This document shows positions 7,300-17,537 of a stretch of DNA of 17,537 bases, piece after piece. Below the pieces are notes generated by a model. That model worked only from the letters and a program-made list of their open reading frames with translations. It had not been told where the DNA came from and searched no databases. The translations under genes were made by a program, and so were the position numbers. Within the stretch, counting starts at the first letter, position 1. Each line of letters starts with the position of its first letter. This stretch comes from an uncultured bacterium. GTDB taxonomy: Bacteria; BMS3Abin14. The DNA is taken from the NCBI GenBank assembly GCA_965603295.1, contig CBFDCL010000043.1, forward strand, positions 1-17,537, in the 5' to 3' direction.

Positions 7300-7463
7300 A
7301 CGAACCAGTGTGGGCTCCAGGCAAAAGGTTAATGAATTAGGGGCTGCTGGCCACAGATGTCAGGTTGGCATGAATGTCACGTTCAGCGGTCTGTGAAGGT
7401 CCAAAAATACCCTAATGTCAGATTATTTCAATGGGTTTAAGGGTGTCAAGAAAAGAGAAAACG

Positions 7464-7498
7464 GTTTGATGTTTGATGTTTGAAGTTTGAAGTTGCGA
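7464..7498. repeat. heptamer tandem array GTTTGAT/GTTTGAA x5
   Basis: Direct reading gives gtttgat gtttgat gtttgaa gtttgaa gttgcga. Confidence 0.9.
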
Positions 7499-7502
7499 AA
7501 TG

Positions 7503-7549
7503 GATCCAAGATCTTTAGATCCAAGATCCAAAATCCAAGATCCAAAAAA
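7503..7549. repeat. GATCCAA-type tandem array (~5 units) containing five GATC sites
   Basis: Direct reading gives gatccaa gatcttta gatccaa gatccaaaa tccaa gatccaaaaaa. Confidence 0.85.
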
Positions 7550-7554
7550 GGAAC

Positions 7555-7582
7555 GTTAAACAATAAACTTTAAACGATAAAC
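7555..7582. repeat. heptamer tandem array NNTAAAC x4
   Basis: Direct reading gives gttaaac aataaac tttaaac gataaac. The same unit family recurs at 17256-17290. Confidence 0.85.
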
Positions 7583-7593
7583 GTATATCCCCT

Positions 7594-7628
7594 CTGAACA
7601 CTGAACTCAGAACTCTGAACTCAAGATA
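7594..7628. repeat. heptamer tandem array CTGAACT x5
   Basis: Direct reading gives ctgaaca ctgaact cagaact ctgaact caagata. Confidence 0.9.
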
Positions 7629-7687
7629 ATTCCCCTCCGTGTCTCCATGTCTTCGCGTCTCCGTTTCAACCTGTTCAGGTTTACTTA

Positions 7688-7708
7688 TCACCAATCACTA
7701 ATCACCGG
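7688..7708. repeat. heptamer tandem array ATCACYA x3
   Basis: Direct reading gives atcacca atcacta atcaccg. It is related to the units at 14601-14637. Confidence 0.8.
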
Positions 7709-7717
7709 TGCTTTTTC

Positions 7718-7752
7718 TCAATTCTCAACCCTCAACCCTCAATTCTCAATTT
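7718..7752. repeat. heptamer tandem array CTCAAYY x5
   Basis: Direct reading gives ctcaatt ctcaacc ctcaacc ctcaatt ctcaatt. Confidence 0.9.
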
Positions 7753-7761
7753 TACTATTGC

Positions 7762-7791
7762 TTGGCAATTCCCTTTTTCCTCTGTTATCAT
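7762..7791 (+). promoter_or_regulatory. candidate sigma70-type promoter for the SPFH/NfeD operon
   Basis: TTGGCA (7762-7767), an 18-bp spacer, then TGnTATCAT (extended -10 at 7783-7791). This sits ~50 nt upstream of the first gene's ATG at 7840, immediately downstream of the heptamer-repeat arrays. The assignment rests on motifs only. Confidence 0.25.
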
Positions 7792-7839
7792 TTTTAACCG
7801 AAAGGAAAATACACTTAATCTCCGGCCGGGCGAGAGGTT

Positions 7840-8400
7840 ATGGAACAGAGGATTCGTCAGCTCGAAAAGGATGTCCAGAGGTTAAAGACGGCCTACGATC
7901 AGTATTTTGCCGGGGTGGAGCGCAAAGCCCCGGAAAAGCTGGCTGATAGCGTCGCCAGGGAGGTCCGTTCCCTGACCGGCACCCTGATCAACAATACGGC
8001 ATTGCGTTTCCGGGCCCAGCAGGCCATTTCCCGTTATCAGACCTATCATACTTTCTGGCAGAAAAACCTGAAGGACATCGAGGAAGGGAGAAAACCGCGG
8101 CGCCGGGTTACGGGAAGGGCGGCCGCCTCGGGGGAGAAACGTCCCCCCGGCGTCTTTGAGATATCCACCTCCAAGGTGGAAAGAGGCGAAATGGAGAAAT
8201 TTTTTTCCGCTCTGACAAAGGAATACCGCCTTGCCGGCGCGGGCAAAGTTCCCGACATGGGGCGCATACGGGAGGCGCTGGAGGAGCAGACCAGGACTAT
8301 TCGTGAGAAATACGGCTGCGAGAAGGTTGCGTTCAAAGTGGTAAACGAGGGCGGCCAGGTCAAGATAAAGGCCTCCCCGGTTGACAGGGAAAAGACATGA
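7840..8400 (+). CDS. hypothetical protein (186 aa), coiled-coil N-terminus, basic central linker
   Basis: The ORF is long, GC3-rich and codon-biased. AGAGG sits just upstream of ATG 7840. Its stop overlaps the next gene's start as ATGA (8397-8400). I recognise no family. Confidence 0.6.
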   Translation: MEQRIRQLEKDVQRLKTAYDQYFAGVERKAPEKLADSVAREVRSLTGTLINNTALRFRAQQAISRYQTYHTFWQKNLKDIEEGRKPRRRVTGRAAASGEKRPPGVFEISTSKVERGEMEKFFSALTKEYRLAGAGKVPDMGRIREALEEQTRTIREKYGCEKVAFKVVNEGGQVKIKASPVDREKT

Positions 8401-8909
8401 CGAAATCGAGAGTCGCATCGCTTTTGGAAAAGATATCCAAGATCGTCCCCGGGGTTGCGGGGTACCAGGACAGGGAACGGCGCCGGGATGCCGACAAGGC
8501 CGTTCGTAACAAGATCGTGGCGTCACTGACCCGCTGTCGGCACCGGCTTTCGAATGGGATGAGCGATATTTCCCGGGCCGGAGGGCGGGGCAGTCTGAGT
8601 GCGGTGGGGAACCTGGAAAGGGTTAATACCCGGCTCGAGCGCATTGAGGACGAGATCAGATATGCTCCCCATGGGTACGCGGGGTGGTTCGACCGTGAGG
8701 GTGTCGCCCTGGAGGACCTGGAGAGGCTTTATGAGCACGACCTGTCTCTCCTTGAGATTGCCGAAAGGATGGTTGAACTGGTCGGGCCCGTCGAGGCCCT
8801 CGGTTCCGAAAGGGACTGGATGCAGGATCTCGGGCGGGAACTGGAGGCGTTAAGACAGGCTCTTGATAACCGGATGTCCGTTATCAGGGGAGGGGAGGAA
8901 CCGCGTTGA
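8397..8909 (+). CDS. hypothetical protein (170 aa), Arg/Glu-rich predicted helical
   Basis: It is translationally coupled at both ends: ATGA with the upstream gene and TTGA with the downstream gene. I recognise no family. Confidence 0.55.
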   Translation: MTKSRVASLLEKISKIVPGVAGYQDRERRRDADKAVRNKIVASLTRCRHRLSNGMSDISRAGGRGSLSAVGNLERVNTRLERIEDEIRYAPHGYAGWFDREGVALEDLERLYEHDLSLLEIAERMVELVGPVEALGSERDWMQDLGRELEALRQALDNRMSVIRGGEEPR

Positions 8910-10042
8910 GTGAGTTCATCGAGGTCCTGGAATGGGTTGATAATACCGGCAAGGAGATGGTTCACAGGGTCCCTCTGGACGGAACAGGGGAGATCAAGTT
9001 TGGTGCCCAACTTGTGGTCAATGAGAATCAGGCGGCCGTTTTCTTCCGCGACGGAAAGGCCCTGGATGTCCTCGGGCCCGGAAGGCATACCCTGACCACG
9101 CAGAACCTGCCACTTCTCACGAAAGCCCTCAGCCTTCCCTTCAACTTCAAGAGCCCTTTCAAGGTGGCGATCTATTTCGTTTCCATGAAGACCTTTACGA
9201 ACCTCGCCTGGGGCACGCGGGATCCGGTGGCGTTCCGGGATAAGGAACTCGGGATGGTTCGCCTGAGGGGGCACGGCGTTTACACCATCCGGGTCGTTCA
9301 ACCGATGCTCTTCGTCAACGTTCTAGCGGGGACCCAGGGGATTTTCACGACAAAGGAGATCGCGGATTATCTCAGGGCGGTCATTATCTCCCGTATCAAC
9401 GACCTCCTCGGGGAGAACGTCGAATCCCTCCTGGAGCTTCCCCAGGTTTACGAGGAGCTGGGGGCCGCTGCGAAGGCCCGGGTGCGGGACGATTTCCTGA
9501 AATATGGAATTGAGTTGCGAGACCTGATCATCCGGGCGATCACCCCCCCCGATGACGTCCAAAAGATCATTGACGAGCGGGGAAGCATGACCGCTGTCGG
9601 AGAACGGGATTACCTTCGGTTCAAGGCGGCGCAGTTCATGGGGGAGGCCGGCAAGGGAGAAGGCGGAGGGTCCTCTACCGCCGAATCGGGGATGGGCCTT
9701 GGCCTGGGAGCCGGGTTCGGGATGATGGTCCCCGCTTTCCTTCGGTCCGCCATGGAAGGAAAGGATGCTTCACCGGCCCCGTCGAAAGAGACCTGTCCCC
9801 AATGCCGGGCCGGTCTTCCCGCTGACGCGAGGTTCTGTTTCCGCTGCGGGACTCCCGTTGTGAGAGGGCAGGTGTGCGCCTCATGCGGTCAGGATCTGCC
9901 CTCGGATGCGCATTTTTGCCACCGCTGCGGGCAGGAGATGAAGAAAAACAAGCCGGTCTGTTCCCATTGCGGCAACAAGGTCCCGGAAGGGGCGCACTTC
10001 TGTCTGCACTGCGGTGAGAAGATCGAGACGAGCACCCCCTGA
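8906..10042 (+). CDS. SPFH/Band-7 protein of the YdjI type (Band_7_1-like) fused to three tandem zinc ribbons
   Basis: The N-terminus MSEFIEVLEWVDNTGKEMVHRVPLDG...NENQAAVFFRDGKALDVLGPGRHTL matches the YdjI/Band_7_1 family. A Gly/Met-rich linker (GGGSSTAESGMGLGLGAGFGMM) follows. Three repeats of CxxC-x10-FCxxCG (CPQC..FCFRCG, CASC..FCHRCG, CSHC..FCLHCG) close the protein. It uses a TTG start at 8906 with GGAGG 9 nt upstream. Confidence 0.8.
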   Translation: MSEFIEVLEWVDNTGKEMVHRVPLDGTGEIKFGAQLVVNENQAAVFFRDGKALDVLGPGRHTLTTQNLPLLTKALSLPFNFKSPFKVAIYFVSMKTFTNLAWGTRDPVAFRDKELGMVRLRGHGVYTIRVVQPMLFVNVLAGTQGIFTTKEIADYLRAVIISRINDLLGENVESLLELPQVYEELGAAAKARVRDDFLKYGIELRDLIIRAITPPDDVQKIIDERGSMTAVGERDYLRFKAAQFMGEAGKGEGGGSSTAESGMGLGLGAGFGMMVPAFLRSAMEGKDASPAPSKETCPQCRAGLPADARFCFRCGTPVVRGQVCASCGQDLPSDAHFCHRCGQEMKKNKPVCSHCGNKVPEGAHFCLHCGEKIETSTP

Positions 10043-10044
10043 AG

Positions 10045-11361
10045 GTGACACAGGTCAACTACGTCAACCATTGCTGCTCCCAATGCGGCGGTGAAGTGGT
10101 TTTCGACCAGGAGGCCACCGGAACGCGCTGTCGCTACTGCGGGGCTGGTCTCATGATTCTGGGTGCCCGTTCCTCCTGGTTGAACTTTCTGCTGAAACCG
10201 GGGATCACAGTTCCGGATACCGCCCGCGAAGTGACCCGGATTGCCCAGGGAAACGGATGGAAACCTCCCCTTCTCAGATCCGTCCTGCCTTTTTATTATC
10301 CGTTTTTCAGAACCATCGGGCATGCCATCAAGTGGGTCAGGGGGGATGCTCCCGGCTCCGGGGATGGTACCGATCACGTTGAAAAGATCCTCACTCGTTA
10401 CGTCGACCTGATGCGCCCGGCTCATGCCGACCTGTCACCGGGGCTTTTTTCCCCTGGGTATCGGGCCCAGTCCCTTAACCTTTATCTCGCCACAAGGAAT
10501 AACGCGGGGAAGATCCCGTTCCTTCCCATTCAGAAAGACAGGAATGAGCACATGGGGAACATGGAGGACGATTTCTTCGACGGGATGCCGGATCCGGGGC
10601 TTCGGGTCCGGGAAAAGCGACTTTTTAAACTCTGGGAGAGAAACTCTGTCCTTTTCTTTCCCCTCTCCCTGGTGGAGATCCGTGAGGGAAGCCAGATCAG
10701 GCTCCTGTTGCTCGACGCCATCGGGGGATCTCTCATCAGGCAGATTGGCCATGAGGAGATGGAAAAACTCCTCGACAACCTGGACCTGGAAAAGAGCCGT
10801 TCCCCCGGCGAAACCCGTTTGAAACTGGCACCCCTGATCTGTCCGGAATGCGCGGGAGACCTGGACCCCGATCCCAGGGCCTTTGTCCGGTTCTGCCGTG
10901 CCTGCGGACGGGGGTGGGAACCGCTGGGGGGAAGGCTACGGGAAAGGGAGTGCCTGTGGGCGGGAGCCAAACCCCAGGCCAGGGACGCGTCGGCGATCTT
11001 TCTGCCGTTCTGGAGGAAAGAGACCGATGGGGAGGCTCTGCACATCCCCGCCTTCGAAATACGCTCTCCCCGGCTTCTTTACAACCTGTCGGTCCGGTAT
11101 TACCATGCAAACTTCCCCGCCGAGCCGATCCCTTATGAAAACAGGCTCCAAATGCGTTCTCTCCCGGCGGGCCTGCCGCCCGAAGGGGCGGATGAAATGG
11201 CGGATGTGGTGGTACAGACGGGAGCAAGGCCGGTTTCACACCCCAGGAAAGGCAGTTATGCCATTGTCCTGGTTCCGTTCTTTCGCAAGGGGCCGGATCT
11301 CGTGGAGCCGTTTCACGGGCTGGCTGTTCCCATTTCCAGCCTGGAGGTGAAGGTAGGATGA
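10045..11361 (+). CDS. hypothetical zinc-ribbon protein (438 aa) with two CxxC-x14-CxxCG modules
   Basis: A GTG start lies 2 nt after the upstream stop. The N-terminus has CSQCGGEVVFDQEATGTRCRYCG and a second module CPECAGDLDPDPRAFVRFCRACG sits near residue 247. Each module is followed by a hydrophobic LPF(Y/W) segment, which suggests an internal duplication. The stop overlaps the nfeD start as ATGA. Confidence 0.6.
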   Translation: MTQVNYVNHCCSQCGGEVVFDQEATGTRCRYCGAGLMILGARSSWLNFLLKPGITVPDTAREVTRIAQGNGWKPPLLRSVLPFYYPFFRTIGHAIKWVRGDAPGSGDGTDHVEKILTRYVDLMRPAHADLSPGLFSPGYRAQSLNLYLATRNNAGKIPFLPIQKDRNEHMGNMEDDFFDGMPDPGLRVREKRLFKLWERNSVLFFPLSLVEIREGSQIRLLLLDAIGGSLIRQIGHEEMEKLLDNLDLEKSRSPGETRLKLAPLICPECAGDLDPDPRAFVRFCRACGRGWEPLGGRLRERECLWAGAKPQARDASAIFLPFWRKETDGEALHIPAFEIRSPRLLYNLSVRYYHANFPAEPIPYENRLQMRSLPAGLPPEGADEMADVVVQTGARPVSHPRKGSYAIVLVPFFRKGPDLVEPFHGLAVPISSLEVKVG

Positions 11362-12854
11362 AAAAAACCCGACGCTTCATGATCCTGCTAATCCTCGTCT
11401 CTCTTGTTCGCATGGGTACCGGAGTCCTGGCAGAGCAGGTTTCCCCATCGGGGACGAGCGTGGTCAGGATCGTTGTGGACGGCCCTATCAGCCCGGTCAC
11501 AGCCGATTATATCGAGAGGGGGATCGAAAAAGCCCTGGAGGAGGATGCCTCTCTCCTTATTCTCGAACTGGACACACCGGGGGGCCTCATGACGTCCACG
11601 CGCCAGATCGTGAAAGCCCTCCTGGGAGCTGAAGTTCCCATTGCGGTCCACGTCGCTCCGCCAGGTGCCAGGGCGGCATCCGCGGGCGTCTTCATCACGA
11701 TGGCATCCCATGTGGCGGTTATGGCTCCCGGAACCAATATCGGGGCAGCCCACCCGGTCAACGTGGGGGGAGGGAACCCGCTGACCCCGAAGAAAGAAGA
11801 CCGGAAGGAAAATAACGGAAAGAGGAAAGAGCAAGGGGCGGAGGATTCGAAACCGAACGACGGAAAGAGTGTCTCCGGCGAAGACAAAAAAGAAGGATCA
11901 GATAAGGAGGACAAATCCGGGAAGGAAGAAAAGGAAGACGACCCGAGCGTAATGTCCCAGAAGGTCCTCAACGATGCCGTGGCTTTCGTACGGTCCATTG
12001 CCCAGAAAAGAGAACGGAACGCCGACTGGGCGGAAAAGGCTGTCCGGGAGAGTGTTTCGGTGACCGAAAGGGAGGCACTCGAGCTTAACGTGGTAGACTT
12101 CATCGCCGAGAGCACGGAAGACCTCCTCGCGGCGGTTCACGGGCGGACCGTGGAGATCGCGGGGAACGAGGTTACCCTGAATGTGGCCGATGCCAGGGTC
12201 GTGGAATATCCCATGGGCTGGAGGCACAGGGTACTCATGGCTCTTTCCGATCCCAACATCGCCTACATTCTCATGATGTTGGGGATTTACGGCCTTTTCT
12301 TCGAACTTTCCAACCCCGGGGTGATCCTTCCCGGTGTCCTGGGCTCCATTTTTCTCATCCTGGCTTTTTTCTCCTTCCAGGTGCTGCCCATCAATTACGC
12401 CGGGCTTCTTCTCATCATCGTAGCCCTTGTCCTGTTCATCCTTGAAGTGAAGGTCGTCTCCTATGGAATGCTGTCCGTGGGGGGTGCCGTTGCCCTTTTC
12501 CTGGGGAGTATTATGCTTTTTGAATCCGCAGAGCCCTACTACCGTCTTTCTTTAAAGCTGGTGGTCAGTATGACCGCCCTGACTGTCCTGTTTTTCGCGG
12601 TGATCCTTGGATTTGCCATCCGCATCCAGCGCCGGAAACCCACAACGGGTCTGGAGGGCTTGTTGGGGGAACCCGGGGTGGTAACGGTGGCCCTGAATCC
12701 CGAGGGGAAGATCAAGGTCCACGGGGAGATCTGGACGGCCTGGTCGGACAGCCCCCTTCCGAAGGGCACCCGGGTCAAGGTCACAGAGGCCGAGAGGATG
12801 AAACTGAAAGTGGTAAAAGAAACCGAAAAAGAGGTCCTAAGTCCTAAGTCCTAA
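11358..12854 (+). CDS. NfeD-family membrane-bound ClpP-class serine protease (long form, stomatin operon partner)
   Basis: A signal peptide/TM precedes the ClpP-like domain (LELDTPGGLMTSTRQI, PPGARAASAGVFI, APGTNIGAAHP). A multi-TM segment and a C-terminal OB-fold (VVTVALNPEGKIKVHGEIWTAWS) complete the protein. A ~55-aa K/E/D/G/S-rich insertion interrupts the protease domain. SD GGAGGTGAAGGTAGG precedes ATG 11358. Confidence 0.85.
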   Translation: MKKTRRFMILLILVSLVRMGTGVLAEQVSPSGTSVVRIVVDGPISPVTADYIERGIEKALEEDASLLILELDTPGGLMTSTRQIVKALLGAEVPIAVHVAPPGARAASAGVFITMASHVAVMAPGTNIGAAHPVNVGGGNPLTPKKEDRKENNGKRKEQGAEDSKPNDGKSVSGEDKKEGSDKEDKSGKEEKEDDPSVMSQKVLNDAVAFVRSIAQKRERNADWAEKAVRESVSVTEREALELNVVDFIAESTEDLLAAVHGRTVEIAGNEVTLNVADARVVEYPMGWRHRVLMALSDPNIAYILMMLGIYGLFFELSNPGVILPGVLGSIFLILAFFSFQVLPINYAGLLLIIVALVLFILEVKVVSYGMLSVGGAVALFLGSIMLFESAEPYYRLSLKLVVSMTALTVLFFAVILGFAIRIQRRKPTTGLEGLLGEPGVVTVALNPEGKIKVHGEIWTAWSDSPLPKGTRVKVTEAERMKLKVVKETEKEVLSPKS

Positions 12855-12861
12855 GTTCCAA
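12834..12861. repeat. heptamer tandem array GTCCTAA x3 plus degenerate unit, overlapping the last 6 codons and stop of nfeD
   Basis: Direct reading gives gtcctaa gtcctaa gtcctaa gttccaa. It encodes ...VLSPKS*. Confidence 0.9.
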
Positions 12862-12874
12862 GTACTTCTTATCT

Positions 12875-12908
12875 CTCAGGACTTATCGCGTAGAACTGGG
12901 TTTTTTTT
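12875..12908 (+). terminator. weak hairpin plus T8 run between nfeD and the stomatin gene (possible attenuator/terminator)
   Basis: A run of eight T at 12901-12908 follows CGCGTAGAACTGGG. Only an imperfect upstream stem can be drawn (AAGTCCTAAG/CTCAGGACTT). Confidence 0.2.
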
Positions 12909-12935
12909 ATTAACCCGTTTGTCAGGGGGTGAGCC

Positions 12936-13715
12936 ATGTTTCCGATGAGCTATTTGATAATCAGTGCGATCATCCTGGTGGTCATGTTCCTCTCTTCCGC
13001 CATCAAAATCCTGCGGGAATACGAGAGGGGTGTCGTTTTCTTCCTGGGACGCCTGGTGGGTCCCCGGGGGCCGGGGCTGGTGATCATCATCCCCGTCCTC
13101 GAGAAGTTGGTCCGCGTCAGCCTGAGACTCGTGACGATGGATGTGCCTCCGCAGGACATTATCACCAGGGACAACGTCTCTGTGAAGGTGAACGCGGTGG
13201 TCTATTTCCGGGTGATGGACCCTAACAAGGCCATCGTCGAGGTGGAGGATTTCTTCTACGCAACGAGCCAGCTGGCCCAGACAACCCTCAGGAGCGTCCT
13301 GGGTCAGGTGGAACTGGATGATCTGCTCTCGGAGAGAGAAAAGATCAACCACCAGCTGCAGGAGATCCTCGATACTGCCACCGATCCGTGGGGAGTCAAG
13401 GTTACGACGGTGGAAGTCAAGCACGTGGACCTTCCCACCGAGATGCAAAGGGCCATGGCGAAGCAGGCGGAGGCCGAAAGAGAGCGCCGGGCCAAAGTCA
13501 TCGCTGCGGAAGGGGAATTTCAGGCAGCCGACAAGCTGGGCCAGGCAGCGGCCATCATCTCCGCTCACCCGCAGGCCCTCCAGCTTCGATACCTGCAGAC
13601 CCTGGCGGAAATTGCCACGGAAAACAATTCCACCACGCTCTTTCCGATCCCCATGGACCTGATCAGCGGTTTCATGAATCTCGTCCAAGGAGGGAGCCGG
13701 AAAGAGGAAAAATAG
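12936..13715 (+). CDS. stomatin/prohibitin-like SPFH (Band 7) protein, YbbK/QmcA type
   Basis: An N-terminal TM helix precedes the SPFH core ([28 protein letters not shown]) and a coiled-coil C-terminus. The NfeD gene lies immediately upstream, which is the conserved NfeD-stomatin pair. GGGGTG precedes ATG 12936. Confidence 0.85.
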
Positions 13716-13735
13716 GGCGGGAGGCCTGAGACGCC

Positions 13736-14422
13736 ATGTCACGAATATTCGCCTCGGTTATCGCCGGATTCAGGTACGTGTTTTTCCTGGCAGTGCTGGC
13801 TTTGGCTGCCCTTTCCCTGGTTTCTCTGGTGAGGGGAATGGGGGAAATATTGTTTCTCTTCCATGGCCGCGGTCTGACCGTGGGGCCCGGGAGTGGCGTC
13901 GCCGCGGTCCACTGGTTTTTCCAGGCGTTTTTCCTGTATTTTCTCGCGGTGGCTCTCTGCTCGCTCCTGGTTGCCGAAACTCCTGTTCCCCAATGGATGG
14001 TGGTTAGAAACCTTTTCCAGTTCCGGAACAAGGTCCTGACCATCGTTTCCGTTATTCTGCCCCTGGCGTTTCTGGGAAAAGTGATGAAGGCGGACGTGTC
14101 CGGCCCTGGTCTCCTCTTTTCGGGGGGCGGTGTCTTTCTTGTCCTTGCGGGGATTTTCCTCCTGACCAGGTTCGGTTCTCCTGCAGGGGATGAGGGGATG
14201 GCCCGGGAAGGGAACCGGTCCCCTGATCGGACAGGACGAAGAGACCGGAAAACCACACACCCCGGAGGACGGGATTCCCGCAAGGACCGGAACTGGCAGG
14301 AAAAGCCGAAGGAGGATCCCTCGCGAAGAGCGGAGGGAGATCCGGATGCCTCATCCGAATTCCGGAAAAACGGCAACGTAACGGTCAAGCCGGGACCAAG
14401 AAGGCCGAGACAGCGGCGATAG
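13736..14422 (+). CDS. YqhA/UPF0114-like integral membrane protein with Arg/Asp-rich C-terminal tail
   Basis: The N-terminus MSRIFASVIAGFRYVFFLAVLALAAL resembles the YqhA family. It has 4 predicted TM helices and a ~80-aa low-complexity basic/acidic tail. GGGAGG lies 12 nt upstream of ATG 13736. Confidence 0.5.
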   Translation: MSRIFASVIAGFRYVFFLAVLALAALSLVSLVRGMGEILFLFHGRGLTVGPGSGVAAVHWFFQAFFLYFLAVALCSLLVAETPVPQWMVVRNLFQFRNKVLTIVSVILPLAFLGKVMKADVSGPGLLFSGGGVFLVLAGIFLLTRFGSPAGDEGMAREGNRSPDRTGRRDRKTTHPGGRDSRKDRNWQEKPKEDPSRRAEGDPDASSEFRKNGNVTVKPGPRRPRQRR

Positions 14423-14551
14423 CCGCCTCGCCTCCAGACGGGTGGTTGGACGCGGAGAAAGGGAGACCCGCCTTCGCAAAAGCTTCGGGGTAGCAAGCAC
14501 GGTGACGCGGAGAAAATCCTACGACCTGGCGGCAGGGAGATAGGAAAATCA

Positions 14552-14616
14552 CGTTTAACGTGGAAAACTTGTGACTTGTGATTGTTGACTGGAATATACG
14601 AATCACCAATCACCAA
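14552..14616. repeat. left copy of ~64-bp inverted repeat (built from heptamer units CTTGTGA x2-3 and AATCACC)
   Basis: cgtttaacgtggaaaacttgtgacttgtgattgttgactggaatatacgaatcaccaatcacca is ~90% identical to the reverse complement of 17207-17270. Confidence 0.85.
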
Positions 14617-14637
14617 TCACGAATCACCAATCACAAA
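14601..14637. repeat. heptamer tandem array AATCACC x5
   Basis: Direct reading gives aatcacc aatcacc aatcacg aatcacc aatcaca. Confidence 0.9.
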
Positions 14638-14660
14638 TATCTTTCAGATGGAATTTCTCC

Positions 14661-15452
14661 ATGCGGATTCATTTTGTTCATCCAAAATTCCTGAGCGATG
14701 CACTCCTTGAGGAGGAACACGATTTCCTTCACAGGCTCTTTGACGCCCTTTCGGAAGGGGAGAAGGGAAGCATAGACCACCCTGACCTTTTCCGCTACAG
14801 GGGGCGAAGGGGGCAGCTGTACATTCGCCACAGGAAGATCGCCGAAGAGTTAGGGATACGGGGCCTGCCGCACGAAACGTTCTTCGATCGCCGAAACATT
14901 GAACCGGAAGAGTGGGAGGAGCCTGGAATCTCTCCCGAGACGGTTTTTGCCGATGCGGGGGAAGTCCGGGATGCGGGTCCCGGCAGGGTGATATTGCCGG
15001 AAACGGAGAACCCCGAGGATATCGTCTGCCCGAGAGACATCTGTTCGGCCATCCCGGGCAAATTGGAGGTGGATATCCTGAGGGAACTGTGGAGGATCTA
15101 CCGGTACGTGGTTATGGAGCGATCCTATGGGCGTTATCGGTCACTGACGGACCCGGTCCAGGGGCGGGGGAAGGGGTCGGTCTGGATGCTCTTTGACCTG
15201 ATGATGGAAGAGGCGTTCGCCCAACTGCCCGAGGAACGGGCCCCGGCAATCGCCTACGAAACCATATGGGAAGCCATGCAGGGGGAGGCGACGGATGATG
15301 AGGAGAAGGAGCATGCCCGTCTTGCCGCTGCCCTCGAACCGGGGAAGGTCAGCCTGGCAATGAGACGATTTCTTGCCGCAGTTGCCGAAAGACAGGGGAA
15401 CGGGGATTTAACGGTCTCGGCGTTGCTGGTGCCTTACTTGAAGGACGATTAA
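14661..15452 (+). CDS. pyrimidine-dimer DNA glycosylase (T4 endonuclease V/DenV-like, Pyr_excise) family N-domain with acidic C-terminal extension
   Basis: The N-terminus MRIHFVHPKFLSDALLEEEHDFLHRLFDAL...GSIDHPDLFRYRG parallels the bacterial family consensus MRLWSLHPKYLD..GLVALWRE.LLA..VL.G.TKGY.NHPQL.RF. The C-terminal ~130 aa are Glu/Asp-rich and match no family I recognise. There is no SD. Confidence 0.5.
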   Translation: MRIHFVHPKFLSDALLEEEHDFLHRLFDALSEGEKGSIDHPDLFRYRGRRGQLYIRHRKIAEELGIRGLPHETFFDRRNIEPEEWEEPGISPETVFADAGEVRDAGPGRVILPETENPEDIVCPRDICSAIPGKLEVDILRELWRIYRYVVMERSYGRYRSLTDPVQGRGKGSVWMLFDLMMEEAFAQLPEERAPAIAYETIWEAMQGEATDDEEKEHARLAAALEPGKVSLAMRRFLAAVAERQGNGDLTVSALLVPYLKDD

Positions 15453-15550
15453 ATATTCAACATTCAAGATTCAAAAAAAAATCGAAAAAGGATTTTCTGG
15501 AAAAAATGAACGAGGGAGGAATGATTTTTTGAATATTGAATCTTGAATAT
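15453..15550. repeat. 26-bp imperfect inverted repeat (24/26) with 46-bp spacer; arms are heptamer arrays ATTCAAN x3
   Basis: atattcaacattcaagattcaaaaaa (15453-15478) pairs with ttttttgaatattgaatcttgaatat (15525-15550). It lies directly after the stop of the 14661-15452 gene. Confidence 0.8.
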
Positions 15551-15566
15551 GAAAATTGAAGTTGCC

Positions 15567-15610
15567 GTGCGTATGAAATCAGAGCCAACAGGCTCTGTTT
15601 TCATACGCAC
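15567..15610. terminator. bidirectional rho-independent terminator hairpin between the convergent hypothetical gene and zwf
   Basis: GTGCGTATGAAATCAGAGCC-AACA-GGCTCTGTTTTCATACGCAC forms a 19/20-bp stem with a 4-nt loop. The inner GC core CAGAGCC/GGCTCTG is followed by TTTTCAT on the plus strand and by ATTTCAT on the minus strand. The right arm contains the zwf stop codon. Confidence 0.6.
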
Positions 15611-17136
15611 TGATCCAGCATCAACTCTTTCAACTGCTGGGCCGCCGGAGGACCTTGCGAGCCGGCTTCGTAGATGTGCAGGAGGCGGTCTTTCCCGGCA
15701 CACGTCTCGCACTGGCGTAAAACGGGGTCGATGAACGCCCAGGCGAGATCGATGCCCTCCCTGTGCCAGAAAAGCATCTGGTCGCCGTTCATGCAGTCGA
15801 GAAGGGCCTTCTCATAGGCGGTAAGGGCGGGGCCGGTGTATCCACTTTGAAAATCCCAGTTCATTTCCACCGTTTCTAAACACATCCTTGCCCCAGGGCT
15901 TTTGGTCTGAAAGGAAAGGGTGATGTGTTCCCCAGGCTGGATGCCGATGGTCAGCACATTGGCGGAGATGCGTTCTCCCAGTTCATCCCCGAACATCGTT
16001 ACGGGCACCTCCTTGAACCTGATGGCGATCCGGGTGAGTTTGTTCCCGAGACGTTTTCCGCTGGTCAGAAAGAACGGGACTCCCTTCCACCTCCAGTTGT
16101 CGATGAAGATCCGCATCATGCCGAAGGTGGGGGTCATGGATGAGGGGGAGACCCCCTCTTCTTCCCTGTAGCCCCGAACCGGCTCCCTGTCCACGATGCC
16201 CGGACCATATTGGCCCAGGACCAGGTTTTCGAAAAGGTTGTCCACCGGGAACGGGCGAACGGACTGGAACAGCTTGATCTTCTCATCGTGCACGGCATCC
16301 GATTCGAACCGGTTGGGGGGTTCCATTGCCGTCAGGGCGAGGAGTTGGAGCATGTGGTTCTGAAACATGTCCCGGAGCACGCCCGATTGTTCGTAATAGC
16401 CGGCCCGTTTTTCAATCCCGAGGGTCTCTACAGCGGTGATATCCACATGCTGAATGAAGTTGCGGTTCCAGAGGGGCTCGAAAATGGCGTTGGCGAACCT
16501 CAGGGTCAGGATGTTCTGAACCGTTTCCTTTGCCAGGTAATGATCGATGCGGAATATCTGTTTTTCGTCGAAGCTGAGGTGGACCACCCGTTCGAGATCG
16601 GCCGCTGACTGACGGTCGCTCCCGTAAGGCTTCTCGATGATGAGACGCGTCCACCCGTTGCCGCCAGTGTTCGAGGCGGCAAGCCCGCTGTCCCCCAGCA
16701 GTTCGGCTGTCGTTCCGTACAGGAACATAGGGAGGGCAAGGTAGAAGATGCGGTTGCCGCCGGTTCCAGCTTCGGAGTCTAGATTTCGCAGGTAATCGGC
16801 AAGAGAGCGGAAAGAATCCCCGGAATCGTAAACAAGGGTAACGTAATGAAAGTACTCCTTAAACTCTTCCCATCGAGACGTGTCCTGAACCTCCGCGGGA
16901 GGGGCCACTTTGCTGTGAAATTCCTCATCGGACAGGGAAGTGCGGCCGCATCCGACGATCCGGAACGGATCGGGAAGCCCCCCCTTTCGGAACAGGTTGT
17001 AAAGGGCGGGGATCAGTTTCCGGGAGGTCAGATCCCCCGAGGCGCCCAGAATGACGATGGTGCAGGGATCCGGCGGGGCATCCAGAAGGCACCTTTCGGG
17101 AAGATCTTCGACCTGATCATTGGTACCGTTGCTCAT
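15601..17136 (-). CDS. zwf: glucose-6-phosphate 1-dehydrogenase
   Basis: The N-terminal dinucleotide fold is ILGASGDLTSRKLIPALYNL. The active-site motif RIDHYLAKE is present. The length is 511 aa. Confidence 0.9.
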   Translation of the reverse strand: MSNGTNDQVEDLPERCLLDAPPDPCTIVILGASGDLTSRKLIPALYNLFRKGGLPDPFRIVGCGRTSLSDEEFHSKVAPPAEVQDTSRWEEFKEYFHYVTLVYDSGDSFRSLADYLRNLDSEAGTGGNRIFYLALPMFLYGTTAELLGDSGLAASNTGGNGWTRLIIEKPYGSDRQSAADLERVVHLSFDEKQIFRIDHYLAKETVQNILTLRFANAIFEPLWNRNFIQHVDITAVETLGIEKRAGYYEQSGVLRDMFQNHMLQLLALTAMEPPNRFESDAVHDEKIKLFQSVRPFPVDNLFENLVLGQYGPGIVDREPVRGYREEEGVSPSSMTPTFGMMRIFIDNWRWKGVPFFLTSGKRLGNKLTRIAIRFKEVPVTMFGDELGERISANVLTIGIQPGEHITLSFQTKSPGARMCLETVEMNWDFQSGYTGPALTAYEKALLDCMNGDQMLFWHREGIDLAWAFIDPVLRQCETCAGKDRLLHIYEAGSQGPPAAQQLKELMLDQCV

Positions 17137-17170
17137 TCAAGGTCCTTTTTTTCTCAGAGTACAAACAGTA

Positions 17171-17198
17171 ATTTCACATTTCAAATTTCAAAATAACC
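17171..17198. repeat. heptamer tandem array ATTTCAA x3-4
   Basis: Direct reading gives atttcac atttcaa atttcaa aataacc. Confidence 0.8.
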
Positions 17199-17206
17199 AT
17201 TGGTGA

Positions 17207-17270
17207 TGAGTGATTCGTTTATTCCAGTCACCAATCACAAGTCACAAGCTTTTCACGTTTAACGTTAAAC
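17207..17270. repeat. right copy (inverted) of the ~64-bp repeat; contains TCACAAG x3
   Basis: This is the reverse-complement match to 14552-14616. It lies in the gnd-zwf spacer. Confidence 0.85.
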
Positions 17271-17290
17271 ATTAAACGTTAAACCAATAA
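17256..17290. repeat. heptamer tandem array CGTTAAA x5
   Basis: Direct reading gives cgtttaa cgttaaa cattaaa cgttaaa ccaataa. It contains GTTAAC palindromes. Confidence 0.85.
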
Positions 17291-17336
17291 ATGATCGCCC
17301 CGTCGTTCTGTCGCCAAGTCGCCCGGTCGGTTTCTG

Positions 17337-17537
17337 TTACTCCTTCTTTTGCACCGCGTGTCCTCCGAAAGCCCTCCGGAGGGATGCCAGTACCCGGTTG
17401 GAAAAGGAGCTATGCTGGCGTGAACGGAAGCGGGCGAAGAGGGAGGCGGTAATGACCGGCGCAGGAACGGCGGTGTCGATTGCCTGCTGAACCATCCAAC
17501 GTCCCTCCCCGGAGTCATCCACGTAACCGGTAATATC
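17337..17537 (-). CDS. gnd: 6-phosphogluconate dehydrogenase (decarboxylating-like), C-terminal fragment; gene continues beyond window end
   Basis: The C-terminal sequence SGEGRWMVQQAIDTAVPAPVITASLFARFRSRQ...LRRAFGGHAV matches 6PGDH family C-termini. The TAA stop is at 17337-17339. The gene lies upstream of zwf on the same strand. Confidence 0.7.
   Translation of the reverse strand, partial: DITGYVDDSGEGRWMVQQAIDTAVPAPVITASLFARFRSRQHSSFSNRVLASLRRAFGGHAVQKKE

Follow-up and report, generated by a model that had tools for sequence, protein, structure and literature searches.

Inverted 67-nt repeats around a glycosylase-like gene and zwf in an uncultured bacterium: probable copies of one heptamer-array spacer module

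Contig CBFDCL010000043.1 of an uncultured bacterium (assembly GCA_965603295.1) carries, within the 17,537 nucleotides (nt) analysed here (the window), an inverted repeat pair that encloses two convergent genes, one encoding a glycosylase-like protein and the other, zwf, encoding glucose-6-phosphate dehydrogenase. In all likelihood the two arms are paralogous copies of one spacer module built of arrays of 7-nt units (heptamers), neither mobile nor invertible, and they neither bound a mobile element nor form a switch for programmed inversion. Far more tentatively, and with the balance leaning against it, we propose that the module may be a transcribed regulatory leader common to the glycosylase-like gene and zwf; for the explanation as a whole, descriptive and functional parts taken together, we consider the case about evenly poised. 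The locus would offer a clear and datable instance of the copying of a heptamer-repeat spacer module between the upstream regions of two genes 2.6 kb apart, in a host lineage that lies outside the Cyanobacteria, Beggiatoaceae and Bacteroidetes, the groups with described intergenic heptamer arrays, and as a candidate for a mobile or invertible segment it should be dropped.

The inverted arms and their genes

The arms and the genes around them are as follows:

13736-14422, + strand: open reading frame (ORF) of an upstream membrane protein, 228 amino acids (aa), weak UPF0114 match only, co-directional with the glycosylase-like gene
14551-14617, + strand: left arm, 67 nt, from the repeat search; apparently the older copy of the module
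14661-15452, + strand: glycosylase-like ORF, 263 aa, with a marginal Pfam Pyr_excise match at its N-terminus and a DUF1722-like C-terminus
15567-15610, unstranded: bidirectional terminator-like hairpin, 20-nt arms with 95% pairing, fold z of -8.6, overlapping the last zwf codons
15601-17136, - strand: zwf, 511 aa, from the Pfam/NCBIfam domain scan
17199-17265, - strand: right arm, from the repeat search, in the same sense as zwf; lies within the gnd-zwf spacer and is apparently the secondary copy
17337-17537, - strand: 3' end of gnd (6-phosphogluconate dehydrogenase-like), truncated at the edge of the window, stop codon at 17337-17339, from frame analysis

An earlier sequence-only reading of the window had claimed an inverted pair of about 90% identity, and the claim is confirmed: the arms are 67 nt long, 90% complementary (60 of 67 positions) and separated by 2581 nt, and they form the sole outstanding inverted pair that the repeat search returned in the window. 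The coordinates given earlier hold for the left arm (14552-14616), and those of the right arm (17207-17270) are offset by about 5-8 nt. The inverted pair of arm-bearing spacers had a local alignment score of 49.5, against 17.5 or less for the remaining spacer pairs of the window in both orientations and a maximum of 27 among 2000 shuffles that preserved 7-nt blocks; the match between the arms is thus beyond chance, despite these spacers being built of short repeats. A 29-nt core, searched with up to three mismatches, occurs twice in the window against zero expected, with no third copy there. The pair is no assembly artefact, since an independent ENA contig (L003, 99.2% identical to the window over 3604 nt) has both arms arranged as in the window, and the left arm is present in a JGI contig (L012, also 99.2% identical) that ends before the right arm.

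The positions of the ORFs, domains and hairpins bear out the earlier statement that the arms enclose exactly the glycosylase-like ORF and zwf with a terminator in between, and gnd was correctly named as the gene upstream of zwf: the C-terminus encoded in the window aligns with the gnd products of the related contigs L013 and L004, and those genes match Pfam 6PGD. The left arm lies 128 nt past the stop codon of the 228-aa ORF and 43 nt ahead of the glycosylase-like ATG, and the right arm 71 nt past the gnd stop codon and 62 nt ahead of the zwf ATG. Each arm is therefore found upstream of its own gene and in identical orientation relative to that gene, and the copies are inverted relative to each other because the glycosylase-like gene and zwf converge; the inverted arrangement is a by-product of the same upstream block standing before two facing genes.

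Anatomy of the module

Read in the sense of the downstream gene, the module consists of ACGTTWA units with a small hairpin, three GTGAYTN units, an 8-nt junction and NAATCAC units, and apart from that junction the arms keep a 7-nt register. In the left arm the ACGTTTA-type units contain the small hairpin CACGTTTAACGTG and are followed by three CTTGTGA/GTGAYTN units, the junction GAATATAC and the NAATCAC units; in register, and with the ACGTTTA-type units ahead, it reads GTGACTT, GTGATTG, TTGACTG, GAATATA, CGAATCA, CCAATCA and onwards. The NAATCAC units approximate the reverse complement of the GTGAYTN units, so that each arm can fold on itself. The predicted hairpin of the left module spans 19 bp (RNA z of -3.1). 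The arrays in and beside the arms are:

14567-14590, + strand: (ACTTGTG) array, close to NAATCAC in reverse complement; would form the 5' side of the predicted left hairpin
14598-14638, + strand: NAATCAC array in which 21 nt (three units) are tandemly duplicated; would form the 3' side of the predicted left hairpin
17170-17192, - strand: AATTTCA array (+ strand spelling; ATTTTGA when read with zwf), separating the right arm from the zwf start
17255-17284, - strand: ACGTTAA/ACGTTTA array that covers the distal end of the right arm and continues outside it

The NAATCAC array at 14598-14638 runs past the homology with the right arm, which stops at the 21-nt duplication. Tandem Repeats Finder placed its arrays in or next to the arms at 14567-14590, 14601-14638, 17226-17248 and 17255-17284.

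Evidence on mobility and inversion

The sequence-only reading had noted the lack of a transposase and doubted that the pair was an insertion sequence, in which it was right: the 19 main ORFs of the window were screened for domains with Pfam or NCBIfam (one library each, two ORFs against both), and no transposase or recombinase family was found among them, the families named being PcrA, ClC, GlmS, GlmU, SPFH/NfeD proteins, the glycosylase-like protein and Zwf. Its suggestion of a pair related to miniature inverted-repeat transposable elements (MITEs) is not supported, as there are neither terminal inverted repeats, the block ends (ACGTTTAAC... and ...ATCACCAAT) not being mutual inverted repeats, nor a target-site duplication in the flanks (GAAAATC/CACGAAT on the left, TGTTTA/GGTTATT on the right).

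Further copies of the element were sought in JGI, GTDB and viral collections, and only the same locus of a sister strain was recovered. A 24-nt core pattern matched one of 241 million JGI metagenome records, which is this locus in L012. The GTDB genome scan with a 21-nt core gave two matches, in alphaproteobacterial and Oscillospiraceae metagenome-assembled genomes (MAGs), and these were taken as chance because their number fits the chance expectation; the source genome lies outside that collection. The viral scan, also with a 21-nt core, gave a single match (L015), which covers 22-30 nt of the arms inside a long ORF of an unrelated contig and was likewise dismissed as chance, and plasmid BLAST matches were of low complexity only, to the AATCAC array.

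The gene order around the arms was compared with that of related contigs (the NTZAF and sDUw contigs, 1mCAx, L011, L004/L005/L006, L013 and L014). The convergence of the glycosylase-like gene (+) with zwf (-) is kept in at least seven other lineages, in six of which gnd lies upstream of zwf, and the glycosylase-like gene converges on zwf in every contig whose neighbouring gene shows G6PD domains (eight contigs). The spacing of gnd and zwf varies: the two genes overlap in L004, and their spacer measures about 230 nt in two of the three contigs from JGI sample 3300042731. In L014, a 74% zwf relative on a 2.16-Mb record, gnd is not adjacent to zwf, and part of the region upstream of zwf is N-masked. 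The earlier idea of an inserted segment that separates gnd from zwf fails on this comparison, since the relatives share the order and the two genes are still adjacent in the window; by its synteny the glycosylase-like/zwf segment is ancestral, with its orientation fixed across the clade, and not an insertion.

An invertible segment fares no better. Besides the lack of a recombinase and the order fixed in at least seven other lineages, a single orientation was seen: none of the junctions covered in L003 (both) or L012 (left) shows the alternative, in a sample of two assemblies that span both junctions and one more that spans the left.

Age of the two copies and exchange between them

The relative age of the copies was judged from two one-sided comparisons, with the region upstream of the glycosylase-like gene in L007 and with the gnd-zwf spacer of L013. 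In L007, whose glycosylase-like protein is 87% identical to that of the window, ACGTTTA units, GTGAYTN-like units, a loop and NAATCAC units stand upstream of the gene, a block that by its layout appears to be a diverged orthologue of the left module and that is predicted to form a hairpin of 25 bp (RNA z of -4.4). In L013, whose zwf product is 84% identical, the gnd-zwf spacer measures 90 nt and keeps the proximal ATTTTGA array without any trace of the module; from orthology with this array, the array at 17170-17192 of the window would be the older part of the gnd-zwf spacer. With the module missing from the L013 spacer and an orthologue of the left module present in L007, the left copy appears to be the older one and the right copy a recent, secondary addition in the species of the window. 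The arms diverge from each other by 10%, and the window from L007 by about 25-28% (spacer and third codon positions), which places the copying event after the L007 split. The module was probably copied into the gnd-zwf spacer by ectopic gene conversion or by template switching among repeat-rich spacers that lie close together.

Sequence exchange between the two copies may be continuing. The left arm is identical in three strains (the window, L003 and L012). L003 differs from the window by 21 substitutions over about 3.6 kb, of which four fall within the 67-nt right arm (17199, 17249, 17253 and 17260), and three of these four give the right arm of L003 identity to the left arm, which yields a perfect tract of 34 nt; the longest perfect tract common to the two arms of the window is 17 nt. 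After position 17271, within the ACGTTAA array, L003 carries an additional 7-nt unit (+ strand TTAAACG, L003 3332-3338), a single event that is the only indel in the 3.6 kb and gives direct evidence of unit slippage. The clustered right-arm changes together with the unit gain hint at slippage combined with gene conversion from arm to arm; for the substitutions, a higher neutral rate in the right arm is an alternative. The suggestion that the arms are a site of recombination is thus plausible in the form of exchange, given that the strain differences cluster in the right arm and mostly run towards the left-arm sequence. No array-length polymorphism was found among the same-species contigs L007/L008/L009 and L004/L005/L006, which are identical.

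The L012 contig showed a separate cluster of differences within the 5' part of zwf: at 2857-2975 (window 16851-16969) it differs from both the window and L003 at 12 positions in 120 nt, and over its remaining 2.9 kb it has about 11 differences from the window. The cluster lies close to the end of this contig, which may be chimeric there or may have acquired the tract by recombination with a more distant strain.

Heptamer arrays in the window and its relatives

Arrays of this kind are a general property of the spacers around the module. Tandem Repeats Finder returned 15 period-7 arrays in the 17.5 kb, 14 of which fall inside or border on the non-coding DNA (roughly 1.2 kb in all); together the arrays cover about a third of the non-coding bases. 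They occur in each of the five spacers that exceed 80 nt (7300-7839, 12855-12935, 14423-14660, 15453-15600 and 17137-17336), the array stretches being 7464-7751, 12834-12863, 14567-14638, 15455-15560 and 17170-17284, respectively. The units are diverse: GTTTGAA, GATCCAA, AACGTTA, CTCTGAA, ACTAATC, TTCTCAA, GTCCTAA, ACTTGTG, AATCACC, ATTCAAC and AATTTCA were all recorded, along with the spellings NAATCAC and ACGTTAA. Two further sets of arrays resemble the module or its pairing:

7552-7706, + strand: AACGTTA-type units (7552-7584) and NAATCAC units (7682-7706), upstream of the SPFH/NfeD operon
15453-15550, unstranded: inverted array pair (ATTCAAN)3...(NTTGAAT)3 at 15453-15478 and 15525-15550, 26 nt each, 92% complementary, 46 nt apart, z of -4.5

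The units at 7552-7706 have the order and the strand sense relative to the downstream genes that they have in the module, with no homology over 67 nt. With them, NAATCAC arrays stand on the sense strand ahead of three gene starts in the 17.5 kb. The pair at 15453-15550 lies directly after the stop codon of the glycosylase-like gene, between the convergent genes, and relatives of its arrays occur in three contigs:

L007 1641-1720, L011 927-1040 and L013 3533-3555: ATTTCAA/TTGAAAT relatives of the 15453-15550 arrays

This ATTTCAA/TTGAAAT unit family is found at orthologous positions around the terminator in L007, L011 and L013, relatives with aa identities as low as 65%, which suggests that heptamer arrays in general are maintained or regenerated. 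Inverted array pairs also recur (window 15453-15550, L011 at about 50-110, L004 15406-15489), and period-7 arrays are found in the relatives L004, L007, L011 and L013 and barely in the more distant L014.

Two local features of the window arrays were noted in passing. The stretch at 7464-7751 holds six different arrays in 290 nt. At 12834-12876, the (GTCCTAA)3 array begins in the last NfeD codons and overlaps the NfeD stop codon, and there TAAGTCCT pairs with AGGACTTA about 30 nt downstream to give a hairpin.

Contigs of this clade often start or stop at or near repeat-rich spacers, as in L010 (1-27, the contig starting 27 nt ahead of the glycosylase-like ATG), L011 (1-143), L012 (end at window 16992) and L003 (end), which is consistent with arrays or inverted arms breaking short-read assemblies. 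Repeat-rich spacers would in that case account for assembly breaks in the metagenomes of this clade.

Possible function and rival explanations

A consensus scan found no sigma-70-type promoter in either arm-bearing spacer, and no sigma-54-like -24/-12 site was seen in these spacers by eye. Since no sigma-70-like promoter is evident and both genes follow co-directional genes, the modules are probably transcribed, which would make the left copy part of a 5' leader for the glycosylase-like gene and the right copy an intercistronic region of gnd-zwf, an operon-like pair in relatives. In the transcript the arrays could act as a hairpin, as reiterated 7-nt binding sites or as both, and could influence mRNA processing, stability or translation. 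By the copying event, zwf would have received the post-transcriptional handle of the glycosylase-like gene and been partly uncoupled from gnd. If the arrays are functional, the copying of a module would be a simple rewiring of post-transcriptional control that links NADPH supply (zwf) with a DNA-repair-like gene.

A stronger form of this proposal, which we regard as quite unlikely, treats the module as a portable post-transcriptional cassette of a Desulfobacterota-like lineage in which the NAATCAC units on the mRNA, with or without the inverted partner array, would recruit an RNA-binding protein or RNase of 7-nt periodicity; copying would then have enrolled zwf in a stress regulon of the glycosylase-like gene, and slippage would tune expression.

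Several points weigh against the shared leader, or against the picture of two copies on which it builds. The right module forms a predicted hairpin of 12 bp only, with a DNA z of -1.2 and an RNA z of -2.5 for the whole spacer. The left module is 74.8% identical between the window and L007 against 71.6% at third codon positions, a value that is not above the codon figure in any telling way and so gives no sign of purifying selection on the module. The more distant relatives L004 and L014 have no such module upstream of either gene, and that the arms are transcribed at all is something we infer. The copy number of two, finally, covers only the 17.5-kb window of the source genome plus the assembled public metagenomes.

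Much of this favours the rival that survives best, a neutral by-product: a spacer stretch would have been copied into its neighbour by conversion or template switching in a slippage-prone lineage and kept without function. The conservation of the module at the level of third codon positions, the degraded hairpin of the right copy, the absence of the module from L013, L004 and L014, and the unit indel and clustered changes between strains that are 99.2% identical would all be expected of it. Against it stand the persistence of array unit families at orthologous positions to 65% aa identity (L007, L011 and L013) and the sense-strand NAATCAC arrays that precede three gene starts within 17.5 kb, and we consider it unlikely, if still a serious contender. 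Even if the arrays are neutral, the locus would record slippage and gene conversion in repeat-rich spacers.

The arms might instead act at the DNA level, with the near-palindrome CACGTTTAACGTG or the GTGAYTN/NAATCAC units serving as a transcription-factor site that co-regulates a DNA-repair-like gene and zwf. Such co-regulation has a precedent in Escherichia coli, where SoxS controls nfo and zwf together, and it would suit the identical orientation of the block, its similar distances to the two starts (43 and 62 nt), the palindromic element at the distal end of both arms and the tight, conserved pairing of the glycosylase-like gene with zwf, which suggests a functional link. The CACGT/ACGTG half-sites do not keep a constant spacing, however: 3 nt separate them in the left arm, and in the right arm and L007 the gap is larger and filled with arrays. 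A period of 7 bp is out of step with the helical repeat of DNA, and there is no sigma-70-like promoter nearby and no regulator gene in the window. We regard an operator as improbable.

Equally improbable is a dispersed family of the MITE type or of the type of repetitive extragenic palindromic (REP) sequences and bacterial interspersed mosaic elements (BIMEs), two members of which would have inserted independently in the two spacers. The partial self-complementarity of each arm, the presence of the right arm in the window and its absence in L013, and the frequent breaks of relatives' contigs at these spacers (L010 and L012) are in keeping with such a family, but neither copy has terminal inverted repeats or a target-site duplication, no third copy exists in the window, the JGI records yielded only the sister-strain locus, and the GTDB and viral scans (chance matches of 21-30 nt) and the plasmid search (low complexity only) add none.

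Inversion of the 2.6-kb segment by RecA-dependent recombination or an unlinked invertase, with a swap of the gene that follows gnd, is very improbable: the inverted 67-nt arms, the 34-nt perfect tract of L003 and a geometry in which both genes would stay co-directional with their new upstream neighbours make low-frequency RecA-dependent inversion possible, but the window has no recombinase and a perfect tract of only 17 nt, the L003 and L012 junctions and at least seven other lineages share one orientation, and the enclosed genes are housekeeping genes, without a promoter or alternative gene ends inside the segment.

Comparison with known repeat systems

The known kind to which the arms come closest is that of the intergenic heptanucleotide tandem repeats of the short tandemly repeated repetitive (STRR) or TAACTGA type. 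TAACTGA repeats of Beggiatoaceae, Cyanobacteria and Bacteroidetes are found immediately before start codons, where a role as post-transcriptional sites has been proposed (MacGregor 2015, PMC4679880), and in Elizabethkingia nearly identical repeat-rich spacers occur at two loci and assemblies break in such spacers (PMC4679880). The arrays of the window resemble these in their 7-nt units, their 2-6 copies, their almost wholly intergenic position, often ahead of starts, and the mixture of units per spacer; the unit length, the intergenic confinement and frequency (over 17.5 kb) and the variation in unit number (a single event) were all found here. They differ in that none of the units (NAATCAC, GTGAYTN, ACGTTWA, ATTCAAN and others) is TAACTGA or STRR1-3, in that the arrays often form inverted pairs able to fold into hairpins, and in that the host is an uncultured lineage. 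No literature on heptamer repeats in Deltaproteobacteria was found.

In Haemophilus influenzae, the 5' untranslated regions of hmw1A and hmw2A contain a transcribed (ATCTTTC)n hairpin whose cleavage by RNase III controls expression, natural strains having at least 11 repeat units (PMC12721329). A heptamer array upstream of a gene, two loci and a unit number that varies between strains are common to both systems, and the complementary arm of the array is predicted to pair with it over 19 bp in the left module, 25 bp in L007 and only 12 bp in the right module. The arrays of the window are shorter (3-5 units), and of the two systems it is hmw for which transcription, RNase III cleavage and a copy-number effect have been shown; H. 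influenzae is a host-adapted pathogen and the present host an environmental, anaerobe-like lineage. If the portable cassette were nevertheless real, it would amount to hmw-like contingency regulation in a free-living environmental bacterium and would give a function to spacer-filling arrays.

Contiguous heptamer repeats also stand upstream of recF and recO in Nostoc PCC 7120, where their deletion changes reporter expression (bioRxiv 10.1101/2022.06.06.494920). The units are similar (TTTTGAA/TTCAAAA there, GTTTGAA/ATTTTGA/ATTCAAN here), as is their position less than about 100 nt from starts, including those of DNA-repair genes. Nostoc belongs to another phylum, and the arrays of the window are known from their sequence.

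Two more distant comparisons concern the form of the arms. As a short, imperfectly self-complementary element in an operon spacer (gnd-zwf), the right copy resembles REP/BIME sequences and could, like them, add stability to the mRNA that precedes it or modulate the expression of what follows. REP elements occur in many copies with a conserved consensus, unlike the module, which is built of heptamer arrays and of which two copies are known (window plus public metagenomes). Inverted repeats around a segment of about 2.6 kb recall the Hin, Gin and Fim switches, from which the locus differs in having no recombinase, internal promoter, alternative gene ends or second orientation, and a gene order that is fixed across the clade.

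Other features of the window and its relatives

The label of a UV-repair-like gene, attached earlier to the 263-aa ORF, is weak. Its match to Pyr_excise (PF03013) scores 27.8 bits against a cutoff of 23 and covers residues 1-73 only, and its C-terminal half resembles DUF1722 with a score just under the cutoff. BLASTP against an approximate sequence of T4 endonuclease V gave an E value of 0.67, with the catalytic Glu23 facing Phe22; Phe22 is nearly invariant across the family of the glycosylase-like protein, and E19, H20 and H24 are invariant. The family comprises 72 matches, all from metagenomes and MAGs, and a sequence search of the PDB found no relatives. Exact-protein look-ups had neither the glycosylase-like protein nor the Zwf of the window on record, and the closest named zwf relatives are from Desulfobacterales, Desulfobacteraceae or Deltaproteobacteria MAGs at about 58-62% identity.

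Three candidate features around the arms and the terminator were set aside. A predicted 314-aa ORF across the left arm (13672-14616, - strand) looks spurious and has no family match, as does a 79-aa ORF outside the right arm (17279-17518, - strand), whose frame differs from that of the gnd C-terminus. Rfam gave no match at gathering thresholds, and a match of a miRNA model to the terminator hairpin, at permissive thresholds only, is spurious.

Upstream of the arms, a six-gene cluster at 7840-13715 is syntenic with L004 764-6609 at about 75% DNA identity and encodes NfeD, a Band_7 protein, an SPFH protein that has a double zinc ribbon, a 438-aa protein without a domain match and two small proteins of no known kind; relative to L004, the window has the 228-aa membrane-protein ORF (13736-14422) as an extra gene between this cluster and the glycosylase-like gene. 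The spacer between zwf and the glycosylase-like gene of L013 (3147-3555) measures 406 nt against 148 nt in the window and contains several copies of a G/C-rich, self-complementary CCCTCCCCTGGTGGGAGGG-like motif, a different type of repeat.

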